Shown in pieces: positions 2,422 to 61,341 of a stretch of 64,000 nucleotides of DNA. The stretch lies in NCBI RefSeq assembly GCF_035084215.1, contig NC_090343.1, forward strand, positions 31,434,001 through 31,498,000, in the 5' to 3' direction. Under the pieces are notes generated by a model. It searched no databases and was not told the DNA's origin. It saw only the letters and a program-made list of their open reading frames with translations. Each line of letters begins with the position of its first letter. Position 1 is the stretch's first letter. This DNA comes from Heptranchias perlo (taxonomy: Eukaryota). The position numbers and the translations under genes were made by a program.

Positions 2422-3097
2422 CCGGAAGATGTACATCTGAGGGGGTCCGCAAGGTAGGTACATGTCTCTGGACCCTGGGGTAAGTGTGCAAGTTGGTGAA
2501 TGTTCTTGTCAGGAGGAGGGTGGTGGAGGCCAAACTTTGTCCCAAGTGACAGAGTGGCCTCCTGCAATGAGTGAGGGTCTCCCCCCCACACCTGTCAAAT
2601 GGACCTTTGCAGCTGCCACAGGCTGATAGCTGCAACACGTCCATTTGAACTGGGAGTGTTTCCCCCAGTGTGGGAAACAGTCCCAGTTGTTTATAAAATC
2701 CCACCCCTCTTCACATATTCCCCTAATCAGGTCAGTTAATAACCTGAAATAGCAAAGTAAATACTTTTAAGTGGCATCCCGCTGGCTTTAATTGCCTGCG
2801 GGAGTCCCACATGCGGGGGCTGCGCGCGCACGTCGGTGCGTCTGTGGGGAACCCGGAAGTGGGCAGGTTGGAGCCGGTCTCCGGACCCGCTCCGGGATTC
2901 CCCGATTTTCCGAGCCCCCCCGCCAGGAACGCACCCGATAGCCGGTGTTAAAATGAAGCCCATTAATCTTTCAGTGTGAATGTTATTCCGTATCAACAAC
3001 ATGGAGCACAATGGTAGGCAAACAGAGAATACACCACAAAAATATACCTAAAACTGAAAAAAGACCCCCAAAAGAAGAACAGATCCCCAAAAGTGAC

Positions 3098-3391
3098 TTT
3101 TTTTTTATTCGTTCATGGGATGTGGGCGTCGCTGGCGAGGCCAGCATTTAATGCCCAACCTGAATTGCCCTTGAGAAGGTGGTAGTGAGCCGCCTTCTCT
3201 AACCACTGCAATCCATGTGGTGAAGGTTCTCCCACAGTGCTGTTAGGAAGGGAGTTCCAGGATTTTGACCCAGTGACGAAGAAGGAACGGTGAGATATTT
3301 CCAGGTCGAGATGGTGTGTGACTTGGAGGGGAATGTGCAGGTGATGTTGTTCCCATGTGCCTGCTGCCCTTGTCCTTCGAGGTAGTAGAGG
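3098..3391 (-). mobile_element. 3' end of the CR1/Jockey-group LINE family (same as 5185-8415)
   Basis: Near-identical to 5185-5480, with a T-run (A tail) followed by TTCGTTCATGGGATGTGGGCGTCGCTGGCGAGGCCAGC. Confidence 0.9.
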
Positions 3392-4786: not shown

Positions 4787-5250
4787 GGTATCATGACTGC
4801 GTGAATCAGTTGCACACAGAAGAGACTGCATGTGGTGGCATATTGTTAATGGAAAAGGGAAGGTGTAGATAGGACTGTTCGTGGAGTGGACAGATGTTGT
4901 TGTAAAGAGATGGTCTCCTTAACAGTTGCGTATGATGGTTGCCTGCAGCTGGCGATGGCTTGTCCCTCATCCTGTTTATGCTGATGAATCAACTGTTGGT
5001 CTACCTGATGGCTCTGGGAACTTTGGTGGCCCCCTCCTCATCGTCAAAAACCAAAATTGCACATCACCCTTTCCTGGAGACTCAAGCCAAACTGTATTGT
5101 AGAGCCCTCCCAGACTGATCCAGACACTTGAAGTGAATCTTCAGCATTACTGTCATGTGCTTGATGATGACTCTATTGACTGAATTTTTTTTATATATTC
5201 GTTCATGGGATGTGGGCGTCGCTGGCGAGGCCAGCATTTATTGCCCATCC

Positions 5251-8139
5251 CTAATTGCCCTTGAGAAGGTGGTGGTGAGCCGCCTTCTTGAACCACTGCA
5301 GTCCGTGTGGTGAAGGTTCGCCCACTGTGCTGTTAGGAAGTCCCAGGATTTTGACCCAGCGACAATGAAGGAACGGCGATATATTTCCAAGTCGGGATGG
5401 TGTGTGACTTGGAGGGGAATGTGCAGGTGGTGTTGTTCTCATGTGCCTGCTGCCCTTGTCCTTCTAGGTGTTAGAGGTCACGGGTTTGGGAGGTGCTGTC
5501 GAAGAAGCCTTGGCGAGTTGCTGCAGTGCATCCTGTGGATGGTACACACTGCAGCCACAGTGCGCCGGTGGTGAAGGGAGTGAATGTTTAGGGTGGTGGA
5601 TGGGGTGCCAATCAAGTGGGCTGCTTTGTCCTCGATGGTGTCGAGCTTCTTGAGTGTTGTTGGAGCTACACTCATCCAGGCAAGTGGAGAGTATTCCATC
5701 AAACTCCTGACTTGTGCCTTGTAGATGGTGAAAAGCCTTTGGGGAGTCAGGAGGTGAGCCACTCGCTGCAGAATACCCAGCCTCTCTCCTGCCCTTGTAG
5801 CCATTATATTTATGTGGCTGGTCCAGTTAAGTTTCTGATCAATGGTGACCCCCAGGATGTTGATGGTGAGGGATTCGGCGATGGTAATGCCATTGAATGT
5901 CAAGGGGAGGTGATTAGACTCTCTCTTGTTGGAGATGGTCATTGCCTGGCACTTGTCTGGCGCGAACGTTACTTGCCACTTATCAGCCCAAGTCTGGATG
6001 TTGTCCAGGTCTTGCTGCATGCGGGCACGGACTGCTTCATTATTTGAGGGGTTGCGAATGGAACTGAACACTGTGCAATCATCAGCAAACATTCCCATTT
6101 CTGACCTTATGATGGAGGGAAGGTCATTGATGAAGCAGCTGAAGATGTTTGGGCCTAGGACACTGCCCTGAGGAACTCCTGCAGCAATGTCCTGGGGCTA
6201 AGATGATTGGCCTCCAACAACCACTACCATCTTCTTTTGTGCTAGATATGACTCCAGCCACTGGAGAGTTTTCCCATTGACTTCAATTTTACTAGGGCTC
6301 CTTGGTGCCACACTCGGTCAAATGCTGCCTTGATGTCAAGGGCAGTCACTCTCACCTCACCTCTGGAATTCAGCTCTTTTGTCCATGTTTGGACCAAGGC
6401 TGTAATGAGGTCTGGAGCCGAGTGGTCCTGGCGGAACCCAAACTGAGCATCAGTGAGCAGGTTATTGGTGAGTAAGTGCTGCTTGATAACACTGTCGACG
6501 ACACCTTCCATCACTTTGCTGATGATTGAGAGTAGACTGATGGGGCAGTAATTGGCCGGATTGGATTTGTCCTGCTTTTTGTGGACAGGACATACGTGGG
6601 CAATTTTCCACATTGTCGGTTAGATGCCAGTGTTGTAGCTGTACTGGAACAGCTTGGCTAGTGGCACAGCGAGTTCTGGAGCACAAGTCTTCAGCACTAC
6701 AGCCGGGATGTTGTCGGGGCCCATAGCCTTTGCTGTATCCAGTGCACTCAGCTGTTTCTTGATATCACGTGGAGTGAATCGAATTGGCTGAAGACTGGCT
6801 TTTGTGATGGTGGGGATATCGGGAGGAGGCCGAGATGGATCATCCACTCGGCACTTCTGGCTGAAGATGGTTGCAAACGCTTCAGCCTTGTCTTTTGCAC
6901 TCACGTGCTGGACTCCGCCTTCATTGAGGATGGGGATGTTTACAGAGCCTCCTCCCTTTAGTTGTTTAATTGTCCACCAGCATTCTCGACTGAATGTGGC
7001 AGGACTGCAGAGCTTTGATCTGATCCGTTCGTTGTGGAATCGCCTAGCTCTGTCTATAGCATGTTGCTTCCGCTGTTTAGCATGCATGTAGTCCTGAGTT
7101 GTAGCTTCACCAGGTTGGCACCTCATTTTTAGGTACTGCTCCTGGCATGCTCTTCTACACTCCTCATTGAACCAGGGTTGATCCCCTGGATTGTTGGTAA
7201 TGGTAGAGTGAGGAATATGCCGGGCCATGAGATTACAGATTGTGCTGGAATACAATTCTGCTGCTGCTGATGGCCCACAGCACCTCTTGGATGCCCAGTT
7301 TTGAGCTGCTAGATATGTTCTGAATCTATCCCATTTAGCACGGTGGTAGTGCCACACAACACGTTGGATGATGTCCTCAGTGCGAAGACGGGTCTTCGTC
7401 TCCACGAGGACTGTGCGGTGATCACTCCTACCGATACTGTCATGGACAGATGCATTTGCGACAGGTAGATTGGTGAGGACGAGGTCAAGTAAGTTTTTCC
7501 CTCGTGTTAGTTCGCTCACCACCTGCCGCAGGCCCAGTCTGGCAGCTATGTCCTTCAGGTCTCGGCCAGCAGTGGTGCTACCGAGCCACTCTTGGTGATG
7601 GACATTGAAGTCCCCCACCCAGAGTAAATTCTGTGCCCTTGCTCCCCTCAGTGCTTCTCAACATGGAGGAGGACTGATTCATCAGCTGAGGGAGGGCGGT
7701 AGGTGGCAATCAGCAGGAGATTTCCTTGCCCATGTTTGACCTGATGCCATGAGATTTCATGGGGTCCACAGTCAATGTTGAGGACTCCCAAGGCCACTCC
7801 ATCCTGACTGTATATCACTGTACTGCCACCTCTGGTCGGTCTGTCCTGCCGGTGGGACAGGACATACCCAGGGATGGTGATGGAAGAGTCTGGGACATTG
7901 GCTGAAAGGTATGATTCTGTGAGTATGGCTATGTCAGGCTGTTGCTTGACTAGTCTGTGGGACAGCTCTCCCAATTTTGATACAAGTCCCCAGATGTTAG
8001 TGAGGAGGACTTTGCAGGGTCGACTGGGCTTGGTTTCCCTTTGTCGTGTCCAGTGCCGAGTGGTCCATCTGGTTTTATTCTTATTATGACTTTTTTTTTT
8101 AAAAGCAAGATTGTGCAACTGACTGGCTTGCTCGGCCAT
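5251..8139 (-). pseudogene. LINE endonuclease-reverse transcriptase polyprotein, frameshifted
   Basis: APE motifs (TNIWGL, ILTES, GDFNVHH, LDLVLT, SDH) and RT motifs (PISLLS, QFGFR, LDIKAAFDRVWH, FADD) split over ORFs 7648-8151, 6620-7618, 6242-6613, 5478-6098 and 5251-5442. Confidence 0.92.
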
Positions 8140-8334
8140 TTCAGAGGGCAATTAAGAATCAACCACATTGCTGTTGGTCTGGAGTCACATATAGGCCAGA
8201 CAAGGTAAGGACGGCAGGTTTGATGGGTTTTTACAACAATCCAGTAGTTACATTGCCGCCATTACTGATATTAGTATTTTAATTCCAGATTTTATTTTAT
8301 TAATTGAATTGAAATTCCCTAGCTGCTGTGGCAG

Positions 8335-8415
8335 TAAATAGAACTCATAACTCTGGATTATTAATCTGGACCTCTAGATTACTAATCCAGTAACATAACC
8401 ACTATGCTACCGTAC
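8335..8415 (-). promoter_or_regulatory. tRNA-derived head with Pol III type-2 promoter-like boxes
   Basis: Minus strand reads GTACGG-TAGCATAGTGG (A box, 8409-8399)-TTATGTTACTGGATTAGTAATCTAG...GAGTTCTATTT (degenerate B box, 8346-8336). Confidence 0.55.
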
Positions 8416-8784
8416 TCTATATAGGACTACACTGCACTAGTGTTTCACTGGACTAATGGGCAAGTGCCAGATATCATTAGCCTTGTTTCCAAGTCTTTGG
8501 TTCTGAATTTACTCCCTTTTTCAGCACATCATTGGCGCTGGAATTACATTTTTACTACCTCCTTTACGTTGAGTTTCTGCCTCTTAATGGCTGTGGTGCC
8601 ATTTTCAGTTGGATCTGGGGCCTCTGTGTGATGTGGGTGCCACTGCTGCCTGAAGCTTATTTCGATATATGCTAATGAGGAGAAACATTATAGCAAGACC
8701 ACAATCCTATGATTTGCATTCCCAATGCAAGAAGAATAAGTTAGAACAGAAATGGACCAAAATGGTATAAGAAATAGGACTTTT

Positions 8785-9489: not shown

Positions 9490-11239
9490 AGTGTTTCTGA
9501 ACTAATTTTTAGATGGCACAATTCCTTTGTTTTTGAAAAAAATGCCATGCTATGAAAATGTGTGGCTACTAATCATTATCAGATGATGATGATGATTGAA
9601 CAATCCTAGGGACCAATTTTCTCCAAGGCACATCGTTATTATTTGGGACAGCAGTCAGGAATTTTTCTTTACTTCATTTCAAGGGCAAATGCAAGATTAG
9701 CATCCACAACTGAGTCAAGCTAGAATTTGTTCAATGGAGGTTGCAATGCAGCTATTCAGAGATCAGCATGCTGGCCAACAATGGAGTAAACTATCACTAA
9801 CAGCCTCCAGCTCCTCTCACAGAACAAATATGGCAAACATAATATCAGTGATCTTATCTGTGTGCAGAGTGCAGAATCTAACGTTTTCCAAAAATTAAAA
9901 ACAAAAATGCAGTCTTCTGTTTCTGAAAGATCAAAGTCCATGATAATCAAATAAAAAAAATGTTGAGGCTTTCAATTTTACATTCAAATGAAATCAAATG
10001 TGAAAGGAGGGTGCATTATGTGTAAGCATTCTATGCCTTCTTATCTTGCCACTGTTACAAAACTATGAATTATCTTTTGACCAAAGCCACAGTAACTCAA
10101 TACCAAGACCGTCAGAAATCTGTCTACTAATTTTCTTTGGAAAATGTTGGTTTCTCAAGTTTTTCCAAGGATTTAAAAAAAAACATTAGTTTTGGGAAAA
10201 TAGAAAAATGGACAGAATCACAGAATGGACTGCCCTGATCAGACTGGGTCTCCCTGCTCCCACCTAGGTTGATGTTGATCCCCACAGCTATCCTGCACTC
10301 AGTGATTGCACTGGATGGTACTGTAGCTCATTTTGGGGAGTGATCTCACTTGCTCTTGGCCCAGTCCCAGCTTGTTCCTTCTATTCTGACTTTCCAGCAC
10401 TCTTCACATGCTTGTCTTCCTGTCTCCAGCAGCATGTCTTGCGTTAACTGTTCCAGTTGCTATCACCACTCTGCACAATCACAATTAATGATGCAAAACT
10501 GGGGAAATTGGAATCAGAAAGGCTGCAACCCAGGCAGAATCAGGAAGATCCAATTTGAATCGAGTTGTGATCTAGAGTGATACCTGCAGCCAGGCAGCAT
10601 GTGGTACAATTAACATCAGACTGGGAATGCAAGAGGAAGGACTGAGAGAGGAGGTTGGGAGACCAGTCCTAGAGAGTCCAGAAGAGATAATGGAGTGGGT
10701 CTGCATTAGGACCAGGTGAACTACAGTAACATCCAATGTAATTACACCAGTTCCAAGGATTTCCAAAGAATCATAGGGCAAAATTTAATGATTTTGACTC
10801 AGATTTCCATGATAGGGCAGAGTATTCCCTTCACAGTGCAAACACAAATGGTAGGATATTTCACTGGAGTTATGCCAGAATGTAGAAATTCTTCAGGAAC
10901 CACTCCACCAGCTCTTAGCTGTCATCCATTAATTCTGGGATTGTTTGCCTGAAATGACAGGAGACATACAATATATCTGTCCAACAATGGGTGCGTGTAT
11001 TTACATGACATCCAAATGATGAGAGTACATCATCCTATCACTTGTGCCCTAACAATGCTGTTTACTAGGACTACCTGTGTATTCCTAGCATCCAGAACTG
11101 ATGTGACAGTGAGGGGGATTAAAATTTAAGAAGAGATTGGGATATAAATTTACCTTGGATGGTACTGAATTGGTAGCCTGTTTTGAACTCTACCCGATTT
11201 TCTTTGAAGTCAGAGTGCAAGATGCCTACGTCCTACACA

Positions 11240-13920
11240 GGATGAAATCAGAGCAATAGTGAGAAAGGATATTGGCTCAGAAAATCAAGATGTAGAATCA
11301 GTCTGGGTGGAGTTAAGAACCACAAAGGGGCAGAAAATACTGGTGGGAGTTGTCTATTGGTCTCCAAACAGTAGTGGTGATGTAGGGGATGGCATCAAAC
11401 AGGAAATTAGAGATGCATGTAACAAGGGTACTACAGTAATCATGGGTGACTTTAATCTACATATAGACTGGCCAAACCAAATTAGCAATAATACTTTGGA
11501 GGATGAATTCCTGGAGTGTGTACAAGATGTTTTTTTAGACCAGTACGTTGAGGAGCCAACCAGGGAACAGGCTATCCTAGATTGGGTATTGTGCAATGAG
11601 AAGGGGTTAATTAATAATCTTGTTGTGCGGGGTCCTTTAGGGAAGATTGACCATAACATGATAGAATTCTTCATTAAGATGGAAAGTGAAGTAGTCCAAT
11701 CCAAAACTAGGGTCCTAAATCTAAACAAAGGAAAATACGAAGGTATGAGGAGTGAGTTGGCTATGATAGATTGGGAAGCTACATTAAAAGGCATGACGGT
11801 GGATAGGCAATGGCTAACATTTAAGGAACGAATACATGAATTGCAACAATTATACATTCCTTTCTGGAGCAAAAACATGAAAGGAAAAGCGGCCCAACCA
11901 TGGCTAGCAAAAGAAATTAAGGATAGTATTAGATCCAAAGAGGAGTCAGATAAAGTTTCTAGGAAAAGTAGCAAGCCTGAGGATTGGGAGCAGCTTAGGA
12001 TTCAGCAAAAAAGGACCAAGAAATTGATTAAGAGGGGAAAAATAGAGTATGAGAGTAAACTTGCAAGGAACATAAAAGTGGACTGTAAAAGCTTCTACAA
12101 GAACGTAAAAAGAAAAAGATTAGTGAAGACAAATGTAGATCCCTTACTGTCAGAAACGGGAAAATTTATAATGGGGAACAAGGAAATGGCAGAGCAATTA
12201 AACAAATACTTTAGTTCTGTCTTCATGGAAGAGGACACAAATAACTTCCCAGAAAAGCTAGGGAACCAAGGGACTAGTGAGAAGGAGGAATTAAAGGAAA
12301 TTAGTATTCGTAAAAAAATAGTGCTGGAGAAATTAATGGGACTGAAAGCCGATAAATCCCCAGGACCTGATAATCTGCATCCCAGAGTACTAAAAGAGGT
12401 AGCCATGGAAATAGTGGATGCATTAGTTGTCATCTTCCAAAATTCTATAGATTATGGAACAGTTCCTGCAGATTGGAGGGTGGCAAATGTAACCCCACTA
12501 TTTAAAAAAGGAGGGAGAGAGAAAACAGGGAACTACAGACTGGTTAGCCTAACATCAGTAGTAGGGAAAATGCTAGAGTCTATTATAAAGGATGTGATAA
12601 CAGGGCATTTAGAAAATAGCAACGGGATTAGACAAAGTCAACATAGATTTATGAAAGGGAAATCATGTTTGACAAACCTACTGGAGTTTTTTGAGGATGT
12701 CACTGGTAGAATAGATAAGGGAGAAGCAGTGGATGTGGTTTATTTGGATTTTCAGAAGAACTTTGATAAAGTCCCACATAAGAGGTTAGTGTGCAAAATT
12801 AAACCACACGGAATTGGCGGTAATATACTGGCATGGATTGAAAATTGGTTAACAGACAGGAAACAGAGAGTAGCAATAAATGGGTCTTTTTCGGGTGGCA
12901 AGCAGTGACTTGTGGGGTACCTCAGGGATCAGTGCTTGGGCCTCAGCTATTCACAATATATATCAATGATTTGGATGAGGGAACCAAATGTAATATTTCC
13001 AAGTTTGCTGACGACACAAAACTAGGTGGGATTGTGGGTTGTGAGGAGGATGCAAAGAGGCTTCAAGGCGATTTAGACAAGTTAAGTGAGTGGGCAATAC
13101 ATGGCAGATGCAATGTAATGTGGATAAATGTGAAGTTGTCCACTTCGGAAGGAAAAACAGAAAGGCAGAGTATTATTTAAATGGTGATAGATTGGGAAAT
13201 GTTGATGTACAAAGGGACCTGGGTGCCCTTGTACACCAGTCACTGAAAGCAAACATGCAGATGCAGCAAGCAGTTAGGAAGACAAATGGTATGTTGGCCT
13301 TCATTGCAAGAGAATTTGAGTACAGGAGCAAGGCTGTCTTACTGCAGTTATACAGGGCCTTGGTGAGACCACACCTGGAGTATGGTGTGCAGTTTTGGTC
13401 TCCTTACTTGCCATAGAGGGAGTGCAGCGAAGGTTCACCAGACTGATTCCTGGGATGGCAGGACTGTCGTATGAGGCAAGATTGGGTCGACTCGGCCTGT
13501 ATTCTCTCGAGTTTGGAAGAATGAGAGGGGATCTTATTGAAACATATAAAATTCTGACAGGCCTAAACAGACTGGATACAGGGAGGATGTTTCCCTTGGC
13601 TGAGGGGTCCAGAACAAGGGGTCACAGTCTCAGGATATGGGGTAGGACATTTAGGACTGAGATGAGGAGAAATGTCTTCACTCAGAGGGTGGTAAACCTG
13701 TGGAATTCTCTACCACAGAAGGCTACGAAAGCCAAGTCACTGAATATATTTAAGAAGGAGCTAGATAGATTTCTAGACACAAAAGGCATCAAGGGGTATG
13801 GGGAGAGAGCGGGAATATGGTATTGAGATAAAGGATCAGCCATGATCATATTGAATGGCGGAGCAGGCCCGAAGGGCCAAATGGCCTACTCTTGCTCTTA
13901 TTTTCTATGTTTCTATGTTT
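11240..13920 (+). mobile_element. CR1 LINE (HER1-type), 5'-truncated, ORF2 with frameshifts
   Basis: ORFs 11259-12908, 12845-13180, 13090-13416 and 13395-13826 give APE (GDFN, LDWVL, DH) and RT ([14 protein letters not shown]) motifs. 3' UTR ends in TTCTATGT repeats. Confidence 0.95.
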
Positions 13921-15704: not shown

Positions 15705-18030
15705 CATAGAATCATAGAAAGGTTACAGCACAGAAGGAGGCCATTCGGCCCAACGAGTTCGTCCGGCTCTATGCACGAGCAATCCAGCTAGTCCCACTCC
15801 CCCACCCTGTCCCCGTAGCCCTGCACATTTTTTCGTTTCAAGTACTTATCCAGTTCCCTTTTGAAGGCCATGATTGACTCTGTCTCCACCATTCCCTTGG
15901 GCAGTGCATCCCAGATTCCAGATCACTTAGGAACATAGGAACAGGAGTAAGCCATTCAGCCCCTCATGCCTGCTCCGCCATTTGATAAGATCATGGCTGA
16001 TCTGTGATCTAACTCCATATACCTGCCTTTGGCCCATATCCCTTAATACCTTTGGTTGCCAAAAAGCTATCTATCTCAGATTTAAATTTAGCAATTGAGC
16101 TAGTATCAATTGCCGTTTGCGGAAGAGAGTTCCCATCTTCTACAGCCCTTTGTATGTAGAAATGTTTTCTAATCTCGATCCTGAAAGGTCTGGCTCTAAT
16201 TTTTGGACTGTGCCCCCACTCCTAAAATCCCCAACTAGCGGAAATAGTTTCTCTCTATCCACCCTATCTGTTCCCCTTAATATCTTATAAACTTCGATCA
16301 GATCACCCCTTAACCTTCGAAACTCCAGAGAATACAACCCCAATTTGTGTAATCTCGCCTCGTAACTTAACCCTTGAAGGCCGGGTATCATTCTAGTAAA
16401 CCTACGCTGCACTCCCTCCAAGGCCAATATGTCCTTCCGAAGGTGCGGTGCCCAGAATTGCTCACAGTACTCCAGGTGCGGTCTAACCAGGGTTTTGTAT
16501 AGCTGCAGCATAACTTCTGCCCCCTTGTACTCTAGTCCTCTAGATATAAAGGCCAGCATTCCATTAGCCTTCTTGATTATTTTCTGCACCTGTTCATGAC
16601 ACTTCAATGATCTATGTACCTGAACCCCTAAGTCCCTTTGACCATCCACTGCATAAAAAAGTTTTTCCTCATGTCACCTTTGGTTCTTTTACCAATCATC
16701 TTAAATGTATGCCCTCTGGTTCTTGACCCTTCCACCAATGAGAAGAGTTTCTCTCTATCTAACCTATCTAGATCCTTCATGATTTTGAATACCTCTATCA
16801 AATCTCCTCTCAAGCATCTCTGTTCCAAGGAGAACAATCCCAGCTTCTCCAGTCTATCCATGTAATTTAAGTGCCTCATCCCTGGAATCATTTTAGTAAA
16901 TCTCTTCTGCACCCTCTCTAAGGCCTTCACATCCTTCCTAAAGTGCAGTGTCCAGAACTGGACACAGTACTCCAGTTGTGGTCGAACCAGTGTTTTATAA
17001 AGGTTCATCATGATTCCTTGCTTTTGTGCTCTATGCCTCTATTTATAAAGCCCAGGACCCCGTGTGCTTTTTTAAAATGCTTTCTCAACCTGCTCTGCCA
17101 CCTTCAACGATTTGTGCACATATACCTCCAGATCCTTCTGTTCCTCTGCCTCTTTTAGAATTGTGCCCTCTAATTTATATTGCCTCTCCTCATTTTTCCT
17201 ACTGAAAAGCATCACCTCGCATTTTTCCGCGTTAAACTTCATCTGCCACGTGTCTGCCCATGCCACCAGCATCTTGAAGTCTATCACTGTCCTCCTCACT
17301 GTTCACTACCCATTCCAAGTTTTGTGTCATCTGCAAATTTGGAAATTGTGCCCTGTACTCCCAAGTCCAAGTCATTAATATATATCAAGAAAAGCAGCGG
17401 TCCCAGCACCGACCCCTGGGGAACACTGCTGCACCCTCCAGTCTAAAAAACAACCGTTCACCACTACTCTCTGTTTCCTGTCATTTAACCAATTCTGTAT
17501 CCATGTTGCTATTGTCCCCTTTATTCCATGGGCCGCAATCTTAATAGCAAGCCTAACATGTGGCACTTTATCAAACGCTTTTTGAAAATCCATATACGCC
17601 TCATCAACTGCATTGCCCTCATCTACCCTCTCTGTTACCTCATCAAAAAACTCTATCAAGCTGGTTAAACACTATTTGCCTTTAACAAATCCATGCTGGC
17701 TTTCCCTAATCAATCCACACTCATCCAAGTGACTATTAATTCTGTCCTGGATTATCGTTTCCACATGTTTCCCCACCACCAAGGTTAAACTGACTGGCCT
17801 ATAGTTGCTGGATTTATCTTTACACCCTTTTTTGAACAGGGGTGTAACATTTACAATTCTCCAGTCCTCTGACACCACCCCCATATCTAAGGATGTCTGG
17901 AAGATTATGGCCAGTACCTCTGCAATTTCTCCCCTTACTTCCCTCAGAATCCTAGGATGCAAGCCATCCAGATCAGGTGACTTATCTATTTTAAGTACAG
18001 CTAGCCTTTCTAGTACCTCTTCTTTCCCAA
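15705..18030 (-). mobile_element. CR1 LINE, 5'-truncated, interrupted by a second CR1 at 15927-16640
   Basis: Tail (CATAGAAT repeats) at 15705. The sequence breaks at CCAGATCAC (15926) and resumes at 16641. RT ORFs 16628-18043. The uninterrupted homologue is visible at 54380-54480. Confidence 0.9.
15927..16640 (-). mobile_element. Younger CR1 3' fragment nested in another CR1
   Basis: Has its own tail (TAGGAACA repeats at 15928) and ORF 16140-16649 (QRDLGVQVH...LVRPHLEYC...RRLRGDLIE). Confidence 0.9.
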
Positions 18031-19307: not shown

Positions 19308-20876
19308 CTTTTTATTCATTCATGGGATGTAGACGTCGCTGGCAAGGTCAGTATTTATTACCCATCCCTAATTGCCCTTGAGAAGGTGGTGGTGAGCCGC
19401 CTTCTTGAACCGCTGCAGCCCATGTGGTGAAGGTTCTCCCACAGTGCTGTTAGGAAGGGAGTTCCAGGATTTTGACCCAGCAACGATGAAGGAACGGCGA
19501 TATATTTCCAAGTCAGGATGGTGTGTGACTTGGAGGAGAATGTGCAGGTAGTGTTGTTCCCATTTGCCTGCTGCCCTTGTCCTTCTAGGTGGTAGAGGTT
19601 GTGGGTTTGGGAGGTGCTGTCGAAGAAGCCTTGGAGAGTTGCTGCAGTGCATCTTGTAGATGGCACACACTGCAGCAACAATGCGCCGGTGGTGGAGGAA
19701 GTGAATGTTTAAGGTGGTGAATCAAGCGGGCTGCTTTATCCTGGATGGTGTTCAGCTTCTTGAATGCTGTCGGAGCTGCACTCATCCAGGCAAGTGGAGA
19801 GTATTCCATCACACTCCTGACTTGTGCCTTGTAGACGGTGAAAAGGCTTTGGGGAGTAAGGAGGTGAGTAACTCGCCACAGAATACCCAGCCTTTGACCT
19901 GCTCTTGCAGCCACAGTATTTATGTGGCTGATCCAGTTAAGTTTCTGGTCAATGGTGACCCTTAGGATATTGATGGTGGTGGATTGGGCGATGGTAATGC
20001 CGTTGAATGTCAAGCGGAGGTGGTTAGACTTTCTTTTGTTGGAGATGGTCATTGCCTGCCACTTGCCTGGCGTGAATGTTGCTTTCAACTTATGAGACCA
20101 AGCCTGGATGTTGTCCGGGTCTTGCTGCCGGGCAACAAGTCCTGCGGGCACGGACTGCTTCATTATCTGAGGGGTTGCAAATGGAACTGAACACTGTGCA
20201 ATCATCGGCAAACATCCCCATTTCTGACCTTATGATGAAGGTCAGAAGTGAGGATGAAGCAGCTGAAGATGTTTGGGCCTAGGACACTGCCCTGAGGAAC
20301 TCCTGTAGCAATGTCCTGGGGCTGAGATGATTGGTCTCCAACAACCACTACCATCTTCCTTTGTGCTAGGTATGATTCCAGCCTCTGGAGAGTTTTCCCC
20401 CTGATTCCCATTGACTTCAATTTTACTGGGGCTCCTTGATGCCACACTTGGTCAAAGGCTGCCTTTGATGTCAAGGGCAGTCACTCTCACCTCACCTCTG
20501 GAATTCAGCTCTTTTGTCCATGTTTGGACCAAGGCTGTAATGAGGTCTGGAGCCGAGTGGTCCTGGCGGAACCCAAACTGAGCATCTGTGAGCAGACTAT
20601 TGGTGAGTAAGTGCCATTTGATAGCACTGTCAATGACACCTTCCATCACTTTGCTGATGATTGAGAGTCGACTGATGGGGTGGTAAATGGCTAGATTTGA
20701 TTTGTCCTGCTTTCTGTGGACAGGGCATAACTGGGCAATTTTGCACTTTGTCAGTTAGATGCCAGTGTTGTAGCTGTACTGGAACAGCTTGGCTAATTCT
20801 GGAGCACAATTCTTCAGCACTACAGCCGGGATGTTGTCAGGACCCATAACCTTTGCTGTATCTAGTGCACTCAGCT
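19308..20876 (-). mobile_element. 5'-truncated copy of the CR1/Jockey-group LINE (family of 5185-8415)
   Basis: Colinear with 5190-6755. RT ORF fragments 19368-20649. Confidence 0.92.
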
Positions 20877-20879
20877 TCA

Positions 20880-23392
20880 GTTACAGTGGGTTTTCAACTT
20901 GCATCTCAACTCATCATGTCCTCTCTCCTCTGAGTTCACTGCCCTCGCCTCCTTTAATCTTTCCCTCCATGTATACTCCCCTACCCATATTAATGGCCAC
21001 CCCCTCGATCGTGCCATCTGACGTGGCCTCTCTATTCCCATCATGTCAATCACAGATAAGGCTATCTCTGATCACTTCCTTGTATCCCCCTCTCCAGTCA
21101 CATTGCCCTTACCCCTCCCAACCTCACTTCCTTCTATGTCTGCCCCTGGGAAAAAATTCTTCCCCAAGTCAATTACAATAGCACTTTCAAATTCCCAACT
21201 GTCTAGCCTTTGGCCCTCCATTCACCACAACATTTCTGTAGCTCAATCACACCCTCACCTCCACCTTTGATGCCCTTGTCCCCTTTAAAACCATTACCGT
21301 CTCTCACCCTGGTCATTCCCCCTGGTATGGCTCTCAACTCCGCTCCTTTAAGTTCAAAGGTCGCAGACTTCAACGTTTATAGTAGACAACTGGTTTAGCC
21401 ATTCATCATCAGATCTGGCTGGACCACATAAAGCACTATTGGGTCCTGTTCTCCTCTGCCAAAACTGCTCACTATTCCAGGATCATCCTGGAACACAAAG
21501 ATAACCCCCTGCTTCTCTTCTCCACTACAAACCGTCTTCTGAATCCCTTCTCCCCTGCCCCCTCCACCCTCACCTCCAACAACAAGTGTAAGGAGCTCAT
21601 GGACTTCTTTGTCACTAAGATTGAGACCATCCATTGAGCTGCCTCTGTCGCTTCCCTCCTTCCCCGAGCCCACAAAACCAAACTTCCCCTAAGGTTCCCT
21701 CCTGCCCTAGTCCTGAACTTGCATTGTTCTATAGTCTCTCCCCTATCTCCCCTCATGCCCTCTCCGAGCTCATCTTGCCCATGAAACCCATCTCCTATTC
21801 CCTCGACCCCATTCCCACCAAACTGCTAACCACTCAACTTCCCTTCCTGGCCCCCATGTTAGCTGATATTGTTAACGGTTCCCTCCCCTCAGGTACTGTC
21901 CTCCTCCCCTTCAAATCTGCCATCATCTCATACCTCCTCAAAAAACCCACTCTTGACCCCTCTGTTCTTGCAAACTACCATCCCACCTCCAACTTCCCTT
22001 TCCTCTCCAAAGTCCTCGAACATGTTGTTGCCTCCCAAATCTGTGTCCATATTCCATGTCTGAACCCCTCCAATCAGGTTTCCGCCCCTGCCACAGCACT
22101 AAAACAGCTCTTATCAAAGTCACAAATTATGACTTATCTGACTGTGACCATGCTAAACCATTCCTCCTCATCCTTCTTGACCTGTCTGCAGCCTTTGACC
22201 TGGTTGACCACACCATCCTCCTCCAACGCCTCTCCTCTGTCGTCCAGCTCGGTGGGACTGCCCTGGCCTGGTTCCATTCCTATCTATCCAGTCGTAGCCA
22301 GAGAATCACCTGCAATGACTTCTCTTCCTGCTCCCACACCATTACCTCTGGAGTCCCCCAAGGATCTATCCTTGGCTCCCTCCTATTTCTCATCTACCTG
22401 CTACCACTTGGCGACATCATCCGAAAACACAACATCAGGTTCCACATGTATGCTGACGACACCCAGTTCTACCTCACCACCATCTCTCTTGACTCCTCCA
22501 TTGCCTTTGATTTGTCCCGCTGCTTGTCCGACATTTAGTACTGGATGAGCAGAAATTTCTTCCAACTAAATATTGGGAAGACCGAAGCCATTGTCTTCAG
22601 TCCACGCCACAAACTCCGTTCCCTGGCCACCAACTCCATTCCTCTCCTTAACCATTGACTGAGGTTGAACCAGACTGTTCGCAACCTTGGCGTCCTATTT
22701 GACCCTGAGATGAGCTTCCGACCATATATCCGCTCCATCATCAATACTGCCTACTTCCACCTCTGTAACATTGCCGGTTTCCACCTCTGCCTCAGCTCAT
22801 CTACTGCTGAGACCCTCATCCATGCCTTTGTTACCTCTAGACTTGACTATTCCAATGCTCTCCTGGCTGGCCTCCCATTTTCCACCCTCCATAAACTTGA
22901 GCTCATCCAAAATTCTGTTGCCCGTATCCTAACTCACACCAAGTCCTGTTCATCCATCACCCCTACGTTCGCTGACATTGGCTGTTGGTCTGGCAATGCC
23001 TCGATTTTAAAATTCTCATCCTTGTTTTCAAATCCCTCCTTGGCCTTGTGCCTCTCTATCTCTGTAACCTCCTCCAGCCCTACAACTCTTCTTGATCTCT
23101 GTGCTCTTCCAATTCTGGCCTCTTGCGCATCGCCGATTTTAATCGCTCCACCATTGGCAGCCGTGCCTTCAGCTGACTAGGCCCTAAGCTCTGCAATTCC
23201 CTCCCTAAAGCTTTCCGGCTCTCTACCTCTCTCTCCTCCTTTAAGATGTTCCTTAAAACCCACTTCCCACCTGTCCTAATATTTCCATATATGGCTCCGT
23301 GTCAAATTTTGTTTGACAACGCTCCCGTGAAGCACCTTGGGACATTTTACTATGTTATAGGTGCTATATAAATGCAAGTTGTTGTTGCTGTT
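20880..23392 (+). mobile_element. L2 (LINE2) element, 5'-truncated
   Basis: C/T-rich sense strand. LDPIPTKLL, QSGFRPCHST.TAL.KVTN, LDLSAAFD.VDH, GVPQGSILG, YADD and LIHAFVTSRLDYSN motifs. Tail GCTATATAAATGCAAGTTGTTGTTG. Confidence 0.93.
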
Positions 23393-29666: not shown

Positions 29667-29828
29667 TGTGGAGATGCCGGTGATGGACTGGGGTTGACAA
29701 TTGTAAACTTTTGCCTGAAAATAGAGATCTTGAAACATTTGCCTGAGGAAGGAGAAAATCTCCGAAAGCTTGTGAATTTAAAATAAAATTGCTGGACTAT
29801 AACTTGGTGTTGTAAAATTGTTTACAAT
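29667..29828 (+). mobile_element. Penelope-like element terminal-repeat (pLTR) fragment with an inverted 5' segment
   Basis: 14-bp TSD TATTAAAATCAGGA (29653-29666 and 29829-29842). The 3' part is homologous to 58810-58900. Confidence 0.85.
29737..29777 (+). ncRNA. Minimal type I hammerhead ribozyme motif (Penelope-associated)
   Basis: ATTTGC-CTGAGGA-A-GGAG-AAAAT-CTCC-GAAA-GCTT-GTGAAT: core boxes, stem II, palindromic AAGCTT, and stem I with G.U pairs. Confidence 0.65.
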
Positions 29829-30469: not shown

Positions 30470-31269
30470 ACTTGTCTTGAGTGGTGGAGTGAAATAAGTT
30501 GCAATGAAAATAGAGCATCACAGTGCAAGAGGCTGTGCCTATTAGCCAACACCCAGTTCACAGATTTCACTACATGCACATACACAACAGGTTCAATAAA
30601 CAAAATGTCAGAGATTGGGATTTGCTGGAAATGTGGGGAGAGTAATGGAAACTACTGAGTCACCTCCAATTCTGCAGTCTGGTATAGATACCTTGAAGTT
30701 AATGATAGGCGTGGACATTCTCCATAACCACAAATCTTTATATTAGATGTTTACTCAATTCATATTGCTCCTCATTACCACAAAGTTGCAAACAAAAAGT
30801 TACTTGAAGGCTCCACTGGCAGCCAAATGTCTGTTCCTTATAGGGGTAAGTCAGTACACCTCCAGTCTCCAGTCAAGGTGCACTAGATAAAAGTCGTCTC
30901 AGGTGGACAACTGTGAATGGTTGATGGTCTTACATGGAAAACTTTGACAAATTTTGTTAAGTCACATACTATAGAAACAGAAACAAAGAGTGAGTCCTTT
31001 AAAAGATCTGTCTGGTGCTACTGAGTACATTGTGAAAGACAAAAGAACTGACAGCATTGATTCTGCTAGATTTCTGTCTTTGACACTGTGAATATTAATT
31101 AAGAAAAGAAAAGACCAAGGTGGGGCTAACTAAATTATTTGCATTGTTCAGTAGAAAGTTATCCATTGACAAGCCCAAATTTTAAGGTACAGCACTCTTC
31201 CATTTTGTACAGGAAAAAGATCAGCTTTGGTATTCAGTTAGTAAGAGAGTAATGAGTATGGCTTGGCAG

Positions 31270-31835
31270 TCCAACGAACATCCAATCCAAGAATAAAGTT
31301 CTTCTACTCCAACTCACTGAGATTGTTGGTGTATTCAATTTGGATTATTCTTTTGTTCTCTGTTCTTGGCAGGTGGAAATATGGGGTGGGAAAATATTCT
31401 GGAGTTCTGCTTGATTACCTCTGGAAATTAGTCATGCAGAATTTTTCCTCATGAGATTAAATAGGTGATAGGGTAAATCGTACATGGATTTGAAAGGAGT
31501 TCAATGGACCAAAAGGCTTTTTGTCTTTCCTGCATTTTGTTTAAATCGCACCTCATGAAGAGCTGGAAGTATGACAGGTGGGTGCAGCTCACCCCTTTCC
31601 TCCCATACTCCTTGTGAATTTTCTAAATTTCAGCATGTGGGCCTTTTGGTTCATAATCCACATGCACAATAATGAGGAGACAAATTTTTCACTATTCTTA
31701 CTCATCATATGATCCTTAATCTCTATCAACTTCACCAATCCAACGAACATCCAATCCAAGAATAAAGTTCTTCTACTCCAACTCACTGAGATTGCTGGTG
31801 TATTCAATTTGGATTATTCTTTTGTTCTCTGTTCT
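31270..31835. repeat. 97-bp near-perfect direct repeat pair (31270-31366 and 31739-31835)
   Basis: TCCAACGAACATCC...TTGTTCTCTGTTCT present twice with one mismatch. The first copy is flanked by CTTGGCAG on both sides. Confidence 0.95.
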
Positions 31836-34877: not shown

Positions 34878-36388
34878 CTTCCCTGCTCTTCTTCGAAAAG
34901 TGCCATGAGATCTTTTACCTCTACCTGAAAGGGCTGACGCTGCCTAATTAATAGAACGTACAGCACAGAAACAGGCCGTTCGGCCCAACATGTCCAAGCT
35001 GTTTTTAAGCTCCAGACAAGCCTCCTCCCTCCCTACTTCATCTAACCCTATCAGCATATCCTTCTATTCCTTTCTCCCATATGTGTTTATCTAGCTTCCC
35101 CTTAAATGCATCTATACTAGTCACCTCAACTACTCCTTGTGGTAGTGAGTTCAGATTCTAACCACTCTTTGGGTAAAGAAGTTTCTCCTGATTCCCTATT
35201 GGATTTATTATTGACTATCTTATATTTATGACCCCTAGTTCTGGGCTCCCCTTCAAGTGGAAACATCTTCTCTACATTTACCCTATCAAACTCTTTCATA
35301 ATCTTAATCAGGTCACCCCTCAGTCTTCTCTTTTCTAGAGAAAAGAGCCCCAGCCTGTTCAATCTTTCCTGATAAGTCTAACCTCTCAGTTCTTGTATCA
35401 TCCTAGTAAATCTTTTTTGCACCTTCTCCAGTGCCTCTATATCCTTTTTATAATATGGAGACCAGAACTGTTCACAGTGCTCCAAGTGTGGTCTAACCAA
35501 GGTTCTATACAAGTTTAACATAAGTTCTCTGCTTTTCAATTCTATCCCTCTAGAAATGAACCCAGTGCTATGTTTGCTTTTTATATGGCCTTATTAACCT
35601 GCATCACAACTTTTAGTGATTTGTGTATCTGTACCCTGAGATCCCTCTGCTCCTCTACCCCATTTAGACTCTTATTTTCCAAGGATTATGTGGCCTTATT
35701 CTTCCTACCAAAATGTACCACCTCACACTGAACTATATTGAAATTCATTTGCCAATTAAATGCCCATTCTGCGAGTTTATTAATCCTGTATATTGTCGCA
35801 GTCCTCCTGAGTATTAGCTATACCCCCAATTTTATTGTCGTCTGCAAATTTTGAAATTGTACTTCTGATTCCCGAATCCAAACCTTTTATGTAAATGATG
35901 AACAACAGTGGCCTCAGCATTGATCCTTGTGGAACACCACTTCCCACCTATTGCCAGTCTGAGTAACTATCTTTAATCCCTACTCTCTGTTTTCTGTTTT
36001 GTAGCCAGCTTGCTATCCGTTCTGCTACTTGTTCCCTGACTCCACATGTTCTGAGCTTGGTCATGAGTCTACTATGCGGTACCTTATCGAAGGCCTTTTG
36101 AAAATCCAAATATATTACATCTATTAAATTACCCTTGTCTACCCTTTCAGTTACTTCTTCAAAGAATTCAATAAGGTTGGTCAAGCATGACTTTCTCTTG
36201 TGAAATCTGTGCTGACTATTCTTTATTATATTTTCAGTTTCTAGATGTATTTGTATTACATCTTCCTACCACTGACAATAAGCTAATTGGCCTATAGGGT
36301 TAAGCTAATTGATTTTTGGCTTGGTTTAATGCCTCATCCAAAAGACAGAACTTCTATGAAAGGAGCACTCCCTCGGTACTGCACTGAA
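34878..36388 (-). mobile_element. SacSINE1/DeuSINE-like fragment split in two (34878-34945 and 36318-36388) by a CR1 insertion
   Basis: CCCTGCTCTTCTTCGAAAAGTGCCATGAGATCTTTTAC... continues at TTGGTTTAATGCCTCATCC...CACTCCCTCGGTACTGCACTG. Reverse complement of the Deu core at 40385-40500. Confidence 0.7.
34950..36297 (-). mobile_element. CR1 LINE, 5'-truncated
   Basis: ORFs 35126-35362 and 35948-36184 (TNLIEFFEEVT...YLDFQKAFDKVPH). 3' UTR with ACAGAAACAGGCC.TTCGGCCC. Confidence 0.9.
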
Positions 36389-36497
36389 AAAGAAAACTAT
36401 CTACAGGTTAAGTGAGATTCTGATAGCAAGTTCCATAAAAGCGGTGTCCGTGAACTGTGCTAATAATTCCGGGCTGTCATTTAGTGACTATACCTTT

Positions 36498-37290
36498 AGA
36501 ATCATAGAAATTTACAGCATCAGAAGGAGGCTATTCAGCCCATCCTGCTTTTGCCGGCTGAAAAAGAACTATCCAGCCTAATCCCACTTTCCAGCTCTTG
36601 GTCCGTAGCCTTGTAGGTTATGGAACTTTAAGTGCATATCCAAGCACTTTTTAAACGCGATGAGAATTTCTGCCTCTACCGCCCTTTCAGGCAGTGAGTT
36701 CCAGATGCCCACCACCCTCTGGGTGAAAAAAAAATTCTCCTCAACTCCCCTCTAATCATTCTACCAATTACTTTAAATCTATGCCCCCTGGCTATTGGCC
36801 TCTCTGCTAAGGGAAATAAGTCCTCTCTATCCACTCTATCTAGGCCCGTCATAATTTTATACACCTCAATTAAATCTCCCCTCAGCCTCCTCTGTTCCAA
36901 AGAGAACAACCCCAGCCTATCCAATCTTTCCACATAGCTAAAATTCTCCAGTCCTGGCAACATCCTCGTAAATCTTTTCTGTGCCCTTTCTAGTGCAATC
37001 ACATCTCTCCTGTAATATGGTGATCAGAACTGTACACAGTACTCTAACTGTGGCCTAACTAGTATTTTATACAGTTCTAGCATAATCGCCCTGCTCTTAT
37101 ATTCTATGCCTCAGTTAATAAAGGCAAGTATCCCGTATGCCTTCTTAACCACCTTATCTACCTGTCCTGCTACCTTCAGGGATCGGTGGACATGCACTCC
37201 AAGGTCACTTTGTTCCTCTACTCTTCTCAGTATCCTACCATTTATTGTGTATTCCCTTGCCTTGTTTCCCACCCCCCCCAAATGCATTAC
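36498..37290 (-). mobile_element. CR1 3' fragment
   Basis: Tail AGAATCATAGAAAT and ORF 36676-37002. Confidence 0.9.
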
Positions 37291-44300: not shown

Positions 44301-44700
44301 AATCTTAGAATAAGGGGCTTCTCTTTCAAAACTGAGATGAGGAGAAACTTCTTCACTCAGAGGGTAGTAGGTCTGTGGAATTTGCTGCCCCAGGAAGCTG
44401 TGGAAGCTACATCATTAAATAAATTTAAAACAGAAATAGACAGTTTCCTAGAAGTAAAGGGAATTAGGGGTTACGGGAAGCGGACAGGAAATTGGACATG
44501 AAGCTGAGTTCAGATCGGTCAAGGCCCTGTGGGTGGCGGAGCGGGCCCAGGGGCTGAGTGGCCGGGTCCTGTTCCTACTTCTTGTGTTCTTTAGATTTGA
44601 GGTTAGGATCAGATCAGCCATGATCTTATTGAATGGCGGAGCAGGCTCGAGGGGCCGATTGGCCTACTCCTGCTCCTATTTCTTATGTTCTTATGTTCTT
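41362..44700 (+). mobile_element. CR1 LINE (HER1-type) retaining the ORF1 3' end, full-span ORF2 and a duplicated 3' UTR
   Basis: ORF1 SGNH-esterase block V (FWGRWDQYKPDGLHL) at about 41362-41570. ORF2 41532-42467 plus 42780-44501. Tail TTCTTATG repeats. Confidence 0.95.
41532..44501 (+). pseudogene. CR1 ORF2 endonuclease-reverse transcriptase, disrupted near 42460-42600
   Basis: YLNARSIRNK, ITETW, YRPP, GDFN and SDH. Open 573-aa RT segment with [10 protein letters not shown] and FADD. Confidence 0.93.
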
Positions 44701-45965: not shown

Positions 45966-46234
45966 GAATAGGGAATTTAGGAGAAATTTCTTTACCCAGA
46001 GAGTGGTTAGAATGTGGAACTTGCTACCACATGGAGTAGTTGAGGCAACTAGCATAGATGCATTTAAGGGGAAGCTAGATTAACAGATGAGAAAGAAAGG
46101 AATAGAAGCATATGTTGTTGGGGTTAGACGAAGAAGGGTGGGAGGAGGCTCACGTGGAGCATAAACACCATCATGGACCTGTTGGGCCGAATGGCCTGTT
46201 TCTGTGCTTTACATTCTGTGTAATTCTATATAAT
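45966..46234 (+). mobile_element. CR1 3' end
   Basis: NREFRRNFFTQRVVRMWNLLP...FKGKLD plus 3' UTR GGGCCGAATGGCCTGTTTCTGTG and ATTCTA repeats. Confidence 0.88.
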
Positions 46235-53242: not shown

Positions 53243-53518
53243 AAGAACACCCATTCGGCCCAACAGGTCCATGTTTATGCTCCACATGAGCCTCCTCCCA
53301 CCCCTCTTCATCTAACCCTATCAGCATAGCCTACTATTCCTTTTTCCATCATGTATTTATCTAGCTTCCCCTTAAATGCATCTATGCTAGTCACCTCAAC
53401 CACTCCTTGTGGTAGTGAGTTCCACATTCTAACCACTCTCTGGGTAAAGACGTTTCTCCTGAATTCCCTATTGTATTTATTAGTGACTATCTTATATTTA
53501 TGGCCCCTAGTTTTGGTC
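53243..53518 (-). mobile_element. CR1 3' end
   Basis: Colinear with 34970-35250 and with the reverse complement of 45966-46200. Confidence 0.85.
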
Positions 53519-61022: not shown

Positions 61023-61341
61023 GGACATATGGAAAATGAGGATAGTCCAGTCCTCAGACCACTTGGAAAGAGCAGCGCCAACACCAGCGCCCCCCCACCC
61101 CCGCACAAAACACTCCTACAATTACACATCCACCTACTGTGAACGCACCCACTGGGTGGCAACAAGTCTCACCGTTCATGATGAAGCACATGAAAGGGCC
61201 CTATCACAAAAGGCAGTCAAGAATGGGCAAGATGAGGCAGTAGTGGTGAGAATGATAACATTTAATGTGAATTTGACAAAAAACAAATATAAATGAAAAA
61301 CATGACAGTCTGTCAGACACCCTTGTGCAGACCCTTCGTGA

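Follow-up and report, generated by a model that had tools for sequence, protein, structure and literature searches.

Does a coding LINE that begins with a tRNA-like segment owe that beginning to an accident of its locus, or does it belong to a family that has taken up a SINE promoter? The question is raised by an element on the minus strand, at 8417 to 5185, of the window, by which we mean the whole 64,000-nt stretch of DNA that was analysed. The preliminary description of this element as an ORF1-less LINE with a tRNA-like head is confirmed, except that the ORF is broken; the positions given for a tRNA-like A box (8409-8399) and a degenerate B box (8346-8336) hold, and the approximately 280 bp reported ahead of the ATG at 8139 amount to 278 nt from the 5′ end, leaving no room for an ORF1. 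The following parts were annotated, together with three further copies of the family:

5251..8106, minus strand: single APE-RT ORF of about 950 codons, with 3 frameshifts (near 7657, 6280 and 5340) and 4 stops (6622, 6200, 5480 and 5441)
7409..8010, minus strand: APE endonuclease, broken (Pfam Exo_endo_phos_2, E 8e-10; tblastn to relatives)
5841..6578, minus strand: reverse transcriptase (RT), broken (C-half by Pfam RVT_1, E 1e-15; N-half by comparison with relative P0021)
5207..5251, minus strand: predicted 3′ UTR stem-loop, likely the RT recognition site (folding z -2.75), containing AATAAA at 5242
5185..5200, minus strand: A-rich tail, read in the sequence
8414..8420 (5′ copy) and 5170-5176 (3′ copy), minus strand: possible 7-bp target-site duplication, weak
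19308..20876, minus strand: 5′-truncated sister copy, 88-90% identity
48268..49496, plus strand: 5′-truncated sister copy, 90-93% identity
3093..3391, minus strand: 3′ fragment of the Zenon family, 87-90% identity

Head, body, single APE-RT frame, 3′ stem-loop and A-tail stand together in this one unit, and the head is present once in the window (self-match). The stem-loop sequence is near-identical across the 4 window copies, the A-rich tail is present in 4/4, and AATAAA occurs at the 5242 site in 3/4; another AATAAA lies at 8301, 115 nt from the element's 5′ end. As for the target-site duplication, 2.4% of random flank pairs match equally well. A 5′-truncation gradient was seen among the family copies.

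Assignment to the elasmobranch Zenon family

Judged by its sequence, the element belongs, as a dead copy, to the Zenon LINEs of elasmobranchs (Stuart et al. 2026, PMC13343379). The assignment was made by a motif search of the supplement rows and by-eye co-linearity with the published consensuses, the seven of which were compared over the first 400 nt of each. A head-body motif matched only the 7 elasmobranch Zenon rows (CarCar, RhiTyp, ScyCan, HypSab and SquAca_Zenon-1 to -3) in the part of the supplement available, and the co-linearity extends over these 400 nt, with the SquAca type nearest. A head motif had 0 matches in each of the viral, metagenome and genome contig sets scanned, and a homolog search with an N-terminal piece plus longer lengths found none. 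Head, body and spacer (within the 400 nt), a length of approximately 3.2-3.3 kb, the single APE-RT ORF, the absence of ORF1 and the A-tail are alike in the element and in the elasmobranch Zenons; with no structural difference between them, the element is a member. The name "CR1-Zenon like LINE" appears in the whale shark genome preprint (10.1101/443036), and Zenon accounts for 4.4-6.8% of three shark genomes and 0.7% of two rays (Table S4, PMC13343379).

The family and a head-bearing consensus have been catalogued, which is half of what the preliminary description had named as refuting it, whereas the tRNA origin appears unrecognised: the word "tRNA" is absent from the available text and supplement of Stuart et al. 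2026 (PMC13343379; word search), and these parts do not state a tRNA-derived 5′ end with A and B boxes, the lack of a usable AUG, or head+tail derivatives.

In a quick RT tree of 64 of 65 rows (one CR1 row was lost at the length filter), which included no named Zenon RT, the element did not join the window's CR1 but fell into a group of 8 rows (support 95) that holds invertebrate-type proteins, a lancelet one among them. It further differs from canonical CR1 in having an A-tail and no ORF1; neither an esterase ORF1, nor clustering with esterase-encoding CR1s, nor a microsatellite tail was found. Since it is 3.2 kb long and carries an APE-RT, and is not short and non-coding as a SINE2 is, the element is not a SINE, although it may still be transcribed like one. 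The family's 5′ end lies approximately 400 nt ahead of endonuclease motif I, and ORF1 is absent. ORF1 is missing from Zenon elements in all phyla surveyed, which leaves unsupported the earlier view that its absence is unusual or a result of SINE-head capture; this absence and the A-tail are both known Zenon traits and not news.

The head as the 5′ end of the family

8325..8417, minus strand: tRNA-derived head (loose contig ends; weak Rfam tRNA match; 7/7 consensus starts)
8116..8324, minus strand: SINE-like head body, without about 30 nt at 8221/8222 in this copy

As contigs and consensuses read, the head is the real 5′ end of the elasmobranch Zenon family, fixed in sharks and a ray, and to this extent the interpretation proposed earlier is supported. 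All 7 published elasmobranch consensuses, which are not independent because they share one origin, begin with it in the parts available, while 0/3 hagfish and coelacanth Zenons do. Hundreds of contigs from each run, in five organisms, place the family's 5′ end at 8411-8417, just ahead of the A box; all runs were used as contigs. Loose ends at 8415 number 399, 312, 500 and 31 contigs, plus 426 and 347 in another set, and the flanks beyond them are diverse (agreement 0.36-0.40). Summed contig depth, which reflects shape only and not copy number, falls from about 10^6 to 43 beyond 8440, and no longer copies carrying an ORF1 were found. Contig joints link the head to the ORF or endonuclease in three organisms, so that this locus is not alone in having the junction, and 8116 is bridged with at least 31 letters on each side by 3 of the 32 pieces listed. 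Head+tail SINE-like deletion forms, for which the preliminary description had suggested looking, exist. Lepidopteran Zenon 5′ ends are without tRNA homology or Pol III boxes (PMC6740152), which makes the elasmobranch head a lineage-specific gain. Loose ends at 8221, where this copy is shorter, number 552, 586 and 540 contigs in three runs. Two runs, whose "RNA" label is a guess, cover the whole element, but as contigs, and were not taken to show transcription.

Pol III boxes in the head

8399..8409, minus strand: Pol III type-2 A box TAGCATAGTGG, exact TRGCNNAGYGG match
8336..8346, minus strand: B box, decayed here, canonical in the family (contig majority letters; consensuses)
8374..8390, minus strand: anticodon-arm-like stem with a 7-nt loop (sequence)
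8353..8369, minus strand: second, duplicated stem-loop (self-match), stretching the A-to-B distance to 63 nt

Over the two strands of the whole window, the A-box pattern has just 2 matches, that at 8409-8399 included. When the boxes were scored on the consensuses, as far as available, the A box was present in 7/7 (by eye) and an exact B box (GTTCGAATCC or GTTCAAATCC) in 6/7, that of the ray consensus being damaged; the B box, poor in this copy, is canonical in the family. Its majority letters at 8336, 8338 and 8340 come from few spanning contigs (7-9 in one run). By eye, the consensuses retain both boxes but differ from one another in the spacer and second stem, and the anticodon-arm-like stem is retained in shark and ray consensuses, with a partial deletion in SquAca-2.

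ARAGORN found no tRNA in the 64-kb window, and the Rfam tRNA match at 8416-8362 reaches 12.1 bits (E 4.9), below the cut-off of 29; therefore, the window copy alone does not prove a tRNA origin, and it is the family-level boxes that do. Acceptor-stem pairing was not visible by eye in the heads of the consensuses, the head of this copy is predicted to fold as a long hairpin and not as a cloverleaf, and the z of -1.4 for the whole head leaves a special fold unsupported. The head may bear a likeness to tRNA-Gln.

T runs in the element and in controls

Counts reported earlier by eye were confirmed: the sense strand of the element holds 2 T4 runs (8104-8101 and 5734-5731) and no T5, the 19308 copy 1, the 48268 copy 0, and the two long CR1 copies 6 and 7, with one T4 run common to two window copies, as had been cautioned. 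The avoidance of T4 suggested on this basis does not exceed what chance would give in this copy (2 observed versus 4.9 expected in the element, P=0.125, base shuffles; 1 versus 2.3 in the ORF only, P=0.28, codon permutation), and T4 depletion was rejected as evidence for Pol III. The run at 5731 is missing from the majority letters in 4 contig runs, and that at 8104-8101 falls in the variable spacer. By eye, and in the parts available, none of the 7 headed consensuses has a T4 within its first 400 nt, while T4 or longer is present in 3/3 headless hagfish and coelacanth Zenons.

Runs of T3 or longer number 11 versus 23.8 expected, a deficit reached in 0/400 shuffles, and no other of the 14 independent elements has so low an observed/expected ratio. 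In the control set of 3 CR1s and 9 metagenome LINEs they were not depleted; the latter are remote from the query (27-35%) and were used only for comparing T runs. The L2 copy of the window is poor in T3 as well (15 versus 24.7, P 0.003). ARAGORN found no tRNA in the 9 metagenome loci, A/B boxes are absent upstream of them, and 3 of the 9 show long upstream ORFs. Across four window copies, the first T4 in the 3′ flank lies 0-226 nt beyond the end.

Start of translation

8119..8144, minus strand: hairpin with a 7-nt anticodon-like loop (in MFE and centroid), containing ATG 8139
8103..8107, minus strand: GCU(A) codon-like site, candidate pseudoknot partner of the hairpin loop and putative start of the coding frame

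The ATG at 8139, previously taken as the first, is only the first in frame, with six more upstream in the head. In 6/7 consensuses, in the parts available, the matching ATG is followed by GCC TAG, and it was rejected as the start codon. Read-through of this stop was considered as well; it would be in frame in only 3/6 consensuses and this copy. A second ATG, present in 6/7, is out of frame with the endonuclease, and no conserved slippery site was seen in the available consensus sequence. Both the six upstream ATGs and the stop that follows the in-frame one count against scanning from a cap.

Pairing of the anticodon-like hairpin with the downstream GCUA may start translation without an AUG. 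As far as the consensuses are available, the hairpin stems are invariant in 6/7, with variation at the bulge (by eye), GCTA is invariant in 7/7 and in the majority loose ends of three runs, and the GCU frame matches the endonuclease in 4/7 and this copy, being broken in the 3 Squalus consensuses. The stability of the hairpin is no better than that of shuffles (z -0.5), and Rfam gave no IRES match at E up to 10 on this copy, which is without the approximately 30 nt. In pseudoknot I (PKI) of the Dicistrovirus IGR IRES, according to the available parts of PMC3894237 and PMC3517527, an anticodon-like loop likewise pairs with a codon-like site before a non-AUG frame; by eye, however, the element suggests a PKI-like part only, and PKII/III and SL IV/V were not found.

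Proposed life cycle and alternatives

With SINE-type promoter boxes at its 5′ end, Zenon is likely to be transcribed by Pol III and would need a cap-free route of translation. That the full-length form is transcribed by Pol III from the tRNA-derived head and translated cap-free without a normal start codon has, on the sequence evidence, about an even chance; Pol III transcription taken by itself might equally hold or fail. TFIIIC would bind the A and B boxes, and Pol III would initiate approximately 8-10 nt ahead of the A box, pass the T-run-poor ORF and terminate at the first flank T4, giving an RNA of 3.3 kb. More speculatively, the loop of hairpin 8144-8119 might pair with GCUA and set the frame without an AUG. 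The Zenon protein would then bind the 3′ stem-loop and insert by target-primed reverse transcription, which is established for CR1-group LINEs, and internal deletion would likely yield ready-made SINEs. No natural Pol III RNA of animals that is both coding and 3 kb long is known to us. A Pol III-transcribed autonomous coding retrotransposon, translated uncapped via a tRNA-mimicking, IGR-IRES-like pseudoknot, merging LINE and SINE strategies, repeatedly shedding SINEs by internal deletion and filling up to 7% of shark genomes, is a tentative picture and rather unlikely to hold in full.

A smaller, though appreciable, chance goes to a captured SINE 5′ module that now serves as a Pol II internal promoter or plain 5′ UTR, the RNA being capped and polyadenylated and the boxes kept via short head+tail forms or short divergence. 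In its favour, transcription of LINEs is generally ascribed to Pol II (PMC5786205, in the part available), the AATAAA at 5242, close to the 3′ end, is compatible with Pol II as well, the T4 depletion is not significant here, and the L2 control too is low in T3. However, the 5′ end is positioned exactly as a tRNA-type Pol III start would be, the boxes are kept though spacer and second stem diverge, and both the AATAAA at 8301 and the many upstream ATGs weigh against it.

The sharp 5′ end could also result from host Pol II read-through and cutting of a tRNA-like fold (e.g., by RNase P), comparable to the self-cleaving ribozymes of R2/RTE. While other ORF1-less LINEs process their 5′ ends, according to the sources available in part, and putative RNA-type contigs hold the head inside longer records, the missing acceptor-stem pairing, the long-hairpin fold and the centring of conservation on the promoter boxes render this improbable. 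We consider it very improbable that template switching made the 3.3-kb headed element as a "long SINE" without autonomy, mobilised in trans by a headless Zenon: no headless elasmobranch Zenon is among the 7 consensuses as available, no alternative 5′ sequence occurs among the best-supported loose ends at 8030-8100, and the whole ORF is retained in sharks and a ray. A conserved AUG is absent and intact ORF2 is rare (0/2313, 1/1419 and 3/612 copies; Table S3, PMC13343379), as would suit such an element, but in old LINE families a scarcity of intact ORFs is common. Finally, a LINE inserted by chance into an old SINE at this locus, as the single head in the window might suggest, is refuted by the head-ORF join in contigs of other organisms and in the published consensuses.

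Comparison with other systems and significance

If Pol III does transcribe Zenon, its RNA would be a natural long Pol III messenger on which a cap-independent start is forced. The textbook division has LINEs coding and Pol II-transcribed, and SINEs Pol III-transcribed and non-coding, and holds that "SINEs cannot encode a protein" (both from the available part of PMC5786205); a coding family at 4-7% of shark genomes with a conserved type-2 Pol III promoter would break it. If a non-LTR element carried an IGR-type IRES, the definition of ORF2 would have to be revised, as is noted in the part available of Luke et al. 2013 (PMC3894237). Furthermore, a direct route of SINE birth would follow, as deletion of the ORF leaves a complete SINE. 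Should Pol II prove to drive Zenon, all that would be left is a SINE-derived 5′ UTR that had gone unremarked.

A head with A and B boxes, a body and a LINE-derived tail are likewise combined in tRNA-derived SINEs whose LINE parts are bipartite (Kojima 2018, PMC5786205, in the part available). These are short and non-coding; in the element, however, the head tops a complete coding LINE. The shark SacSINE1/CmiSINE (PMC5499810) also join a tRNA head to a LINE tail, but the tail is from L2 and they are short and non-coding. SINEs that borrow Zenon tails are known as ZenoSINE (PMC6685494) and as Zenon-tailed tRNA SINEs of bivalves (PMC11481361), yet in the lepidopteran and bivalve systems only the non-coding SINE has the tRNA head, the 5′ end of the LINE being without tRNA homology or Pol III boxes. 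As here, the lepidopteran Zenon LINE yields deletion derivatives, in that case Persaeus (PMC6740152).

Architecture of the element and its sister copies

The element is a non-LTR retrotransposon that encodes APE endonuclease (Pfam E 8e-10) and reverse transcriptase (Pfam E 1e-15) domains. This copy is dead, because its ORF is disrupted by frameshifts near 7657, 6280, and 5340 and by stops at 6622, 6200, 5480, and 5441. Together, the family copies in the window, which share 86-94% pairwise identity, account for 9.9% of its length:

5185-8417 (-), non-LTR retrotransposon with APE endonuclease and reverse transcriptase domains
5251 (-), end of the APE-RT frame, followed by a short 3' stem-loop (folding z -2.75) and A-tail
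3093-3391, 5'-truncated sister copy
19308-20876, 5'-truncated sister copy
48268-49496, 5'-truncated sister copy

Head and tail are bordered by a 7-bp repeat (8420-8414 versus 5176-5170), which lends slight support to a single insertion event; an equally good match occurs in 2.4% of random flank pairs. Pieces of the ORF are also contained in the annotated shark proteins P0002, P0009, P0010, and P0015 (61-88% identity), probably reflecting gene-model contamination or exonisation.

Within the head, the A box lies at 8409-8399, as the preliminary description had placed it, and the B box reported there as degenerate was located at 8346-8336, decayed in this copy. The leader preceding the ATG at 8139, previously put at about 280 bp, measures 278 nt. 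ARAGORN identified no tRNA in the window, and the Rfam tRNA model scored only 12.1 bits (E 4.9) on this head, which also lacks approximately 30 nt at 8221; as a single copy, it is hardly acceptable as a tRNA.

The head is shared by elasmobranch Zenon elements

Zenon elements have been reported from five elasmobranchs, coelacanth, and hagfish, and the consulted parts of that report describe all of them as lacking ORF1 and ending in poly-A (PMC13343379). The head motif matches exactly 7 rows of its consensus table, every one an elasmobranch Zenon. Comparing the first 400 nt of the published consensuses by eye, we found that this head opens all 7 elasmobranch sequences, with the same body and spacer; each has the A box and 6 an exact B box, that of the ray being one base short. 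The head is absent from the first 400 nt of the 3 hagfish and coelacanth consensuses, all of which contain T4+ runs there, versus none of the 7 headed ones. The second stem-loop of the head (8353-8369) is retained as a hairpin by eye in the published consensuses; the Squalus-type stem letters differ from those of the other sharks, in part by inversion, a pattern that suggests structural constraint. On these partial sequence comparisons, the element can be assigned to elasmobranch Zenon. Thus, the proposed ORF1-less LINE with a tRNA-like head stands as a structure, whereas the missing ORF1 is no peculiarity but ordinary for Zenon. Named protein fragments of the family are known from several sharks, and a quick tree, whose rows included no named Zenon reverse transcriptase, separated the element from the CR1 of the window and grouped it with invertebrate-type single-ORF proteins.

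At the family level, public contigs were aligned to the element over 5000-8600 and 7880-8470. In all 4 runs, depth over 5000-8600 drops from 3' to 5', persists through the head, and collapses beyond it; in run X1, depth over 7880-8470 is 10^6 on either side of a variable spacer and 43 past 8440. Loose ends accumulate at 8415 (399, 312, 500, and 31 contigs for 7880-8470; 426 and 347 for 5000-8600), with AT-rich, mutually unrelated flanks. The contiguity of head and ORF at other insertions was borne out: position 8116 is bridged, by at least 31 letters on each side, in 3 of the 32 pieces among those listed, and head-ORF joints are present in three organisms (A, D, and E). X1 record 8, covering 7982-8178, has 26 differences from this copy and therefore represents a different locus. 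The few contigs spanning the B box site read a canonical B box.

The head is therefore real and family-wide, its sequence already deposited but uninterpreted in the depositing paper, where the word "tRNA" has no occurrences in the text and supplement searched (PMC13343379). The previously unremarked feature is a tRNA head on a coding element. Full-text literature searches, outside subscription journals, Repbase, Dfam, and SINEBase, listed no account of a coding LINE that has a tRNA head or is driven by Pol III. Unlike the shark head, lepidopteran Zenon/Persaeus elements are described, in the sections consulted, as without tRNA homology or Pol III boxes (PMC6740152). A Zenon-like LINE is known from whale shark, with no matches to "tRNA" in the part of the source covered (10.1101/443036). 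Zenon makes up 4.4-6.8% of the genome in three sharks, 0.7% in two rays, and 0.02% in a chimaera (PMC13343379).

Head-and-tail deletion forms

SINE-like forms consisting of head and tail only, as the preliminary description had anticipated, do exist, since joints from 8116-8196 to 5249-5291 make up 7 of the 15 listed for 5000-8600 (8559 more were recorded) and 211 contigs of run X16 pass from 8117 straight into the tail. As these forms have several breakpoints, we favour repeated deletion from the LINE as their probable origin over the opposite direction, in which a SINE would have donated its head to the LINE. ZenoSINE (PMC6685494), bivalve SINEs with Zenon tails (PMC11481361), and SacSINE1/CmiSINE, which use an L2 tail (PMC5499810), are known, with further background on SINEs and LINEs in PMC5786205.

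Transcription and T-runs

Architecture, family-wide head, truncation gradient, and deletion forms were demonstrated. CR1-group ORFs act by target-primed reverse transcription. The A and B boxes would direct Pol III transcription terminating in the flank, to which we give an even chance. That the captured head was put to Pol II use is possible, if less probable; processing of the element RNA from read-through RNA is unlikely, and mobilisation in trans as a passenger slightly more so.

The earlier T4 counts were reproduced on recount, but the shortage was not significant against codon-permuted controls (1 in the ORF versus 2.3 expected, P 0.28). A third-position null gave 4.4 expected (P 0.03), and one CR1 of the window (CR1b) also reached P 0.04 on it; the whole element has 2 T4 runs versus 4.9 expected (P 0.125). 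The T4 at 5731 is not the majority reading in 4 runs of contigs, yet common to two window copies. T3+ runs number 11 versus 23.8 expected, with 0 of 400 shuffles as low; sister copies give P 0.02 and 0.06. Three CR1s and nine metagenome LINEs show no depletion, but the L2 copy of the window does (P 0.003). The T-run pattern is compatible with Pol III, but no proof of it.

Translation start

The ATG at 8139, proposed as the ORF start, did not hold up: it is preceded by six ATGs, and in 6 of the 7 partly viewed consensuses GCC TAG follows directly. By eye, a later ATG, likewise shared by 6 of 7, does not lie in the endonuclease frame. At 8144-8119, folding predicts a hairpin whose 7-nt loop is anticodon-like; its stems are invariant in 6 of 7 consensuses. 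A GCTA complementary to this loop lies 11-12 nt further on; set between variable flanks, it is invariant in all 7 as well as in the majority reading of loose ends from three runs. The frame from GCTA enters the endonuclease in 4 of the 7 consensuses and this copy (spacers 21, 21, 21, 18, and 27), and fails to reach it in three Squalus consensuses. Loop and GCTA resemble pseudoknot I of dicistrovirus IGR IRESs, as presented in the parts consulted (PMC3894237; PMC3517527). Because the hairpin does not exceed shuffled sequences in stability and Rfam gave no IRES match, we treat an IGR-IRES-like pseudoknot before the coding frame as a hypothesis; provided that Pol III holds, the odds of AUG-free initiation through it would be about even.

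Other repeats in the window

Classic CR1 copies share 63-77% identity, with long open frames of 566 and 587 aa:

11208-13905 (+), CR1 LINE
41532-44697 (+), CR1 LINE
15931-17996 (-), CR1 LINE
35174-37272, CR1 fragment
54203-55296, CR1 fragment

A repeat of approximately 270 bp (34946-35244, 45967-46225, and 53251-53516; 85-88% identical) probably represents the 3' end of a further CR1 family. An L2-type copy at 21625-23180 (+) (RVT_1 E 1.5e-17) has a T3-poor sense strand (15 versus 24.7, P 0.003). Related elements at 1056-2463 and 59747-63281, on opposite strands, with approximately 71% identity and a second ORF, are likely PIF/Harbinger transposons; a DDE_Tnp_4 transposase remnant lies at 60022-60609 (Pfam E 3.5e-14). 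A 100-bp direct repeat (31267-31366 versus 31736-31835; 98% identity, 469 bp separation) is either the product of a recent local duplication or a pair of short LTR-like ends. Finally, an 85-bp repeat (29742-29826 and 58816-58900, 89% identity) is presumably similar to a Penelope-like 3' end.
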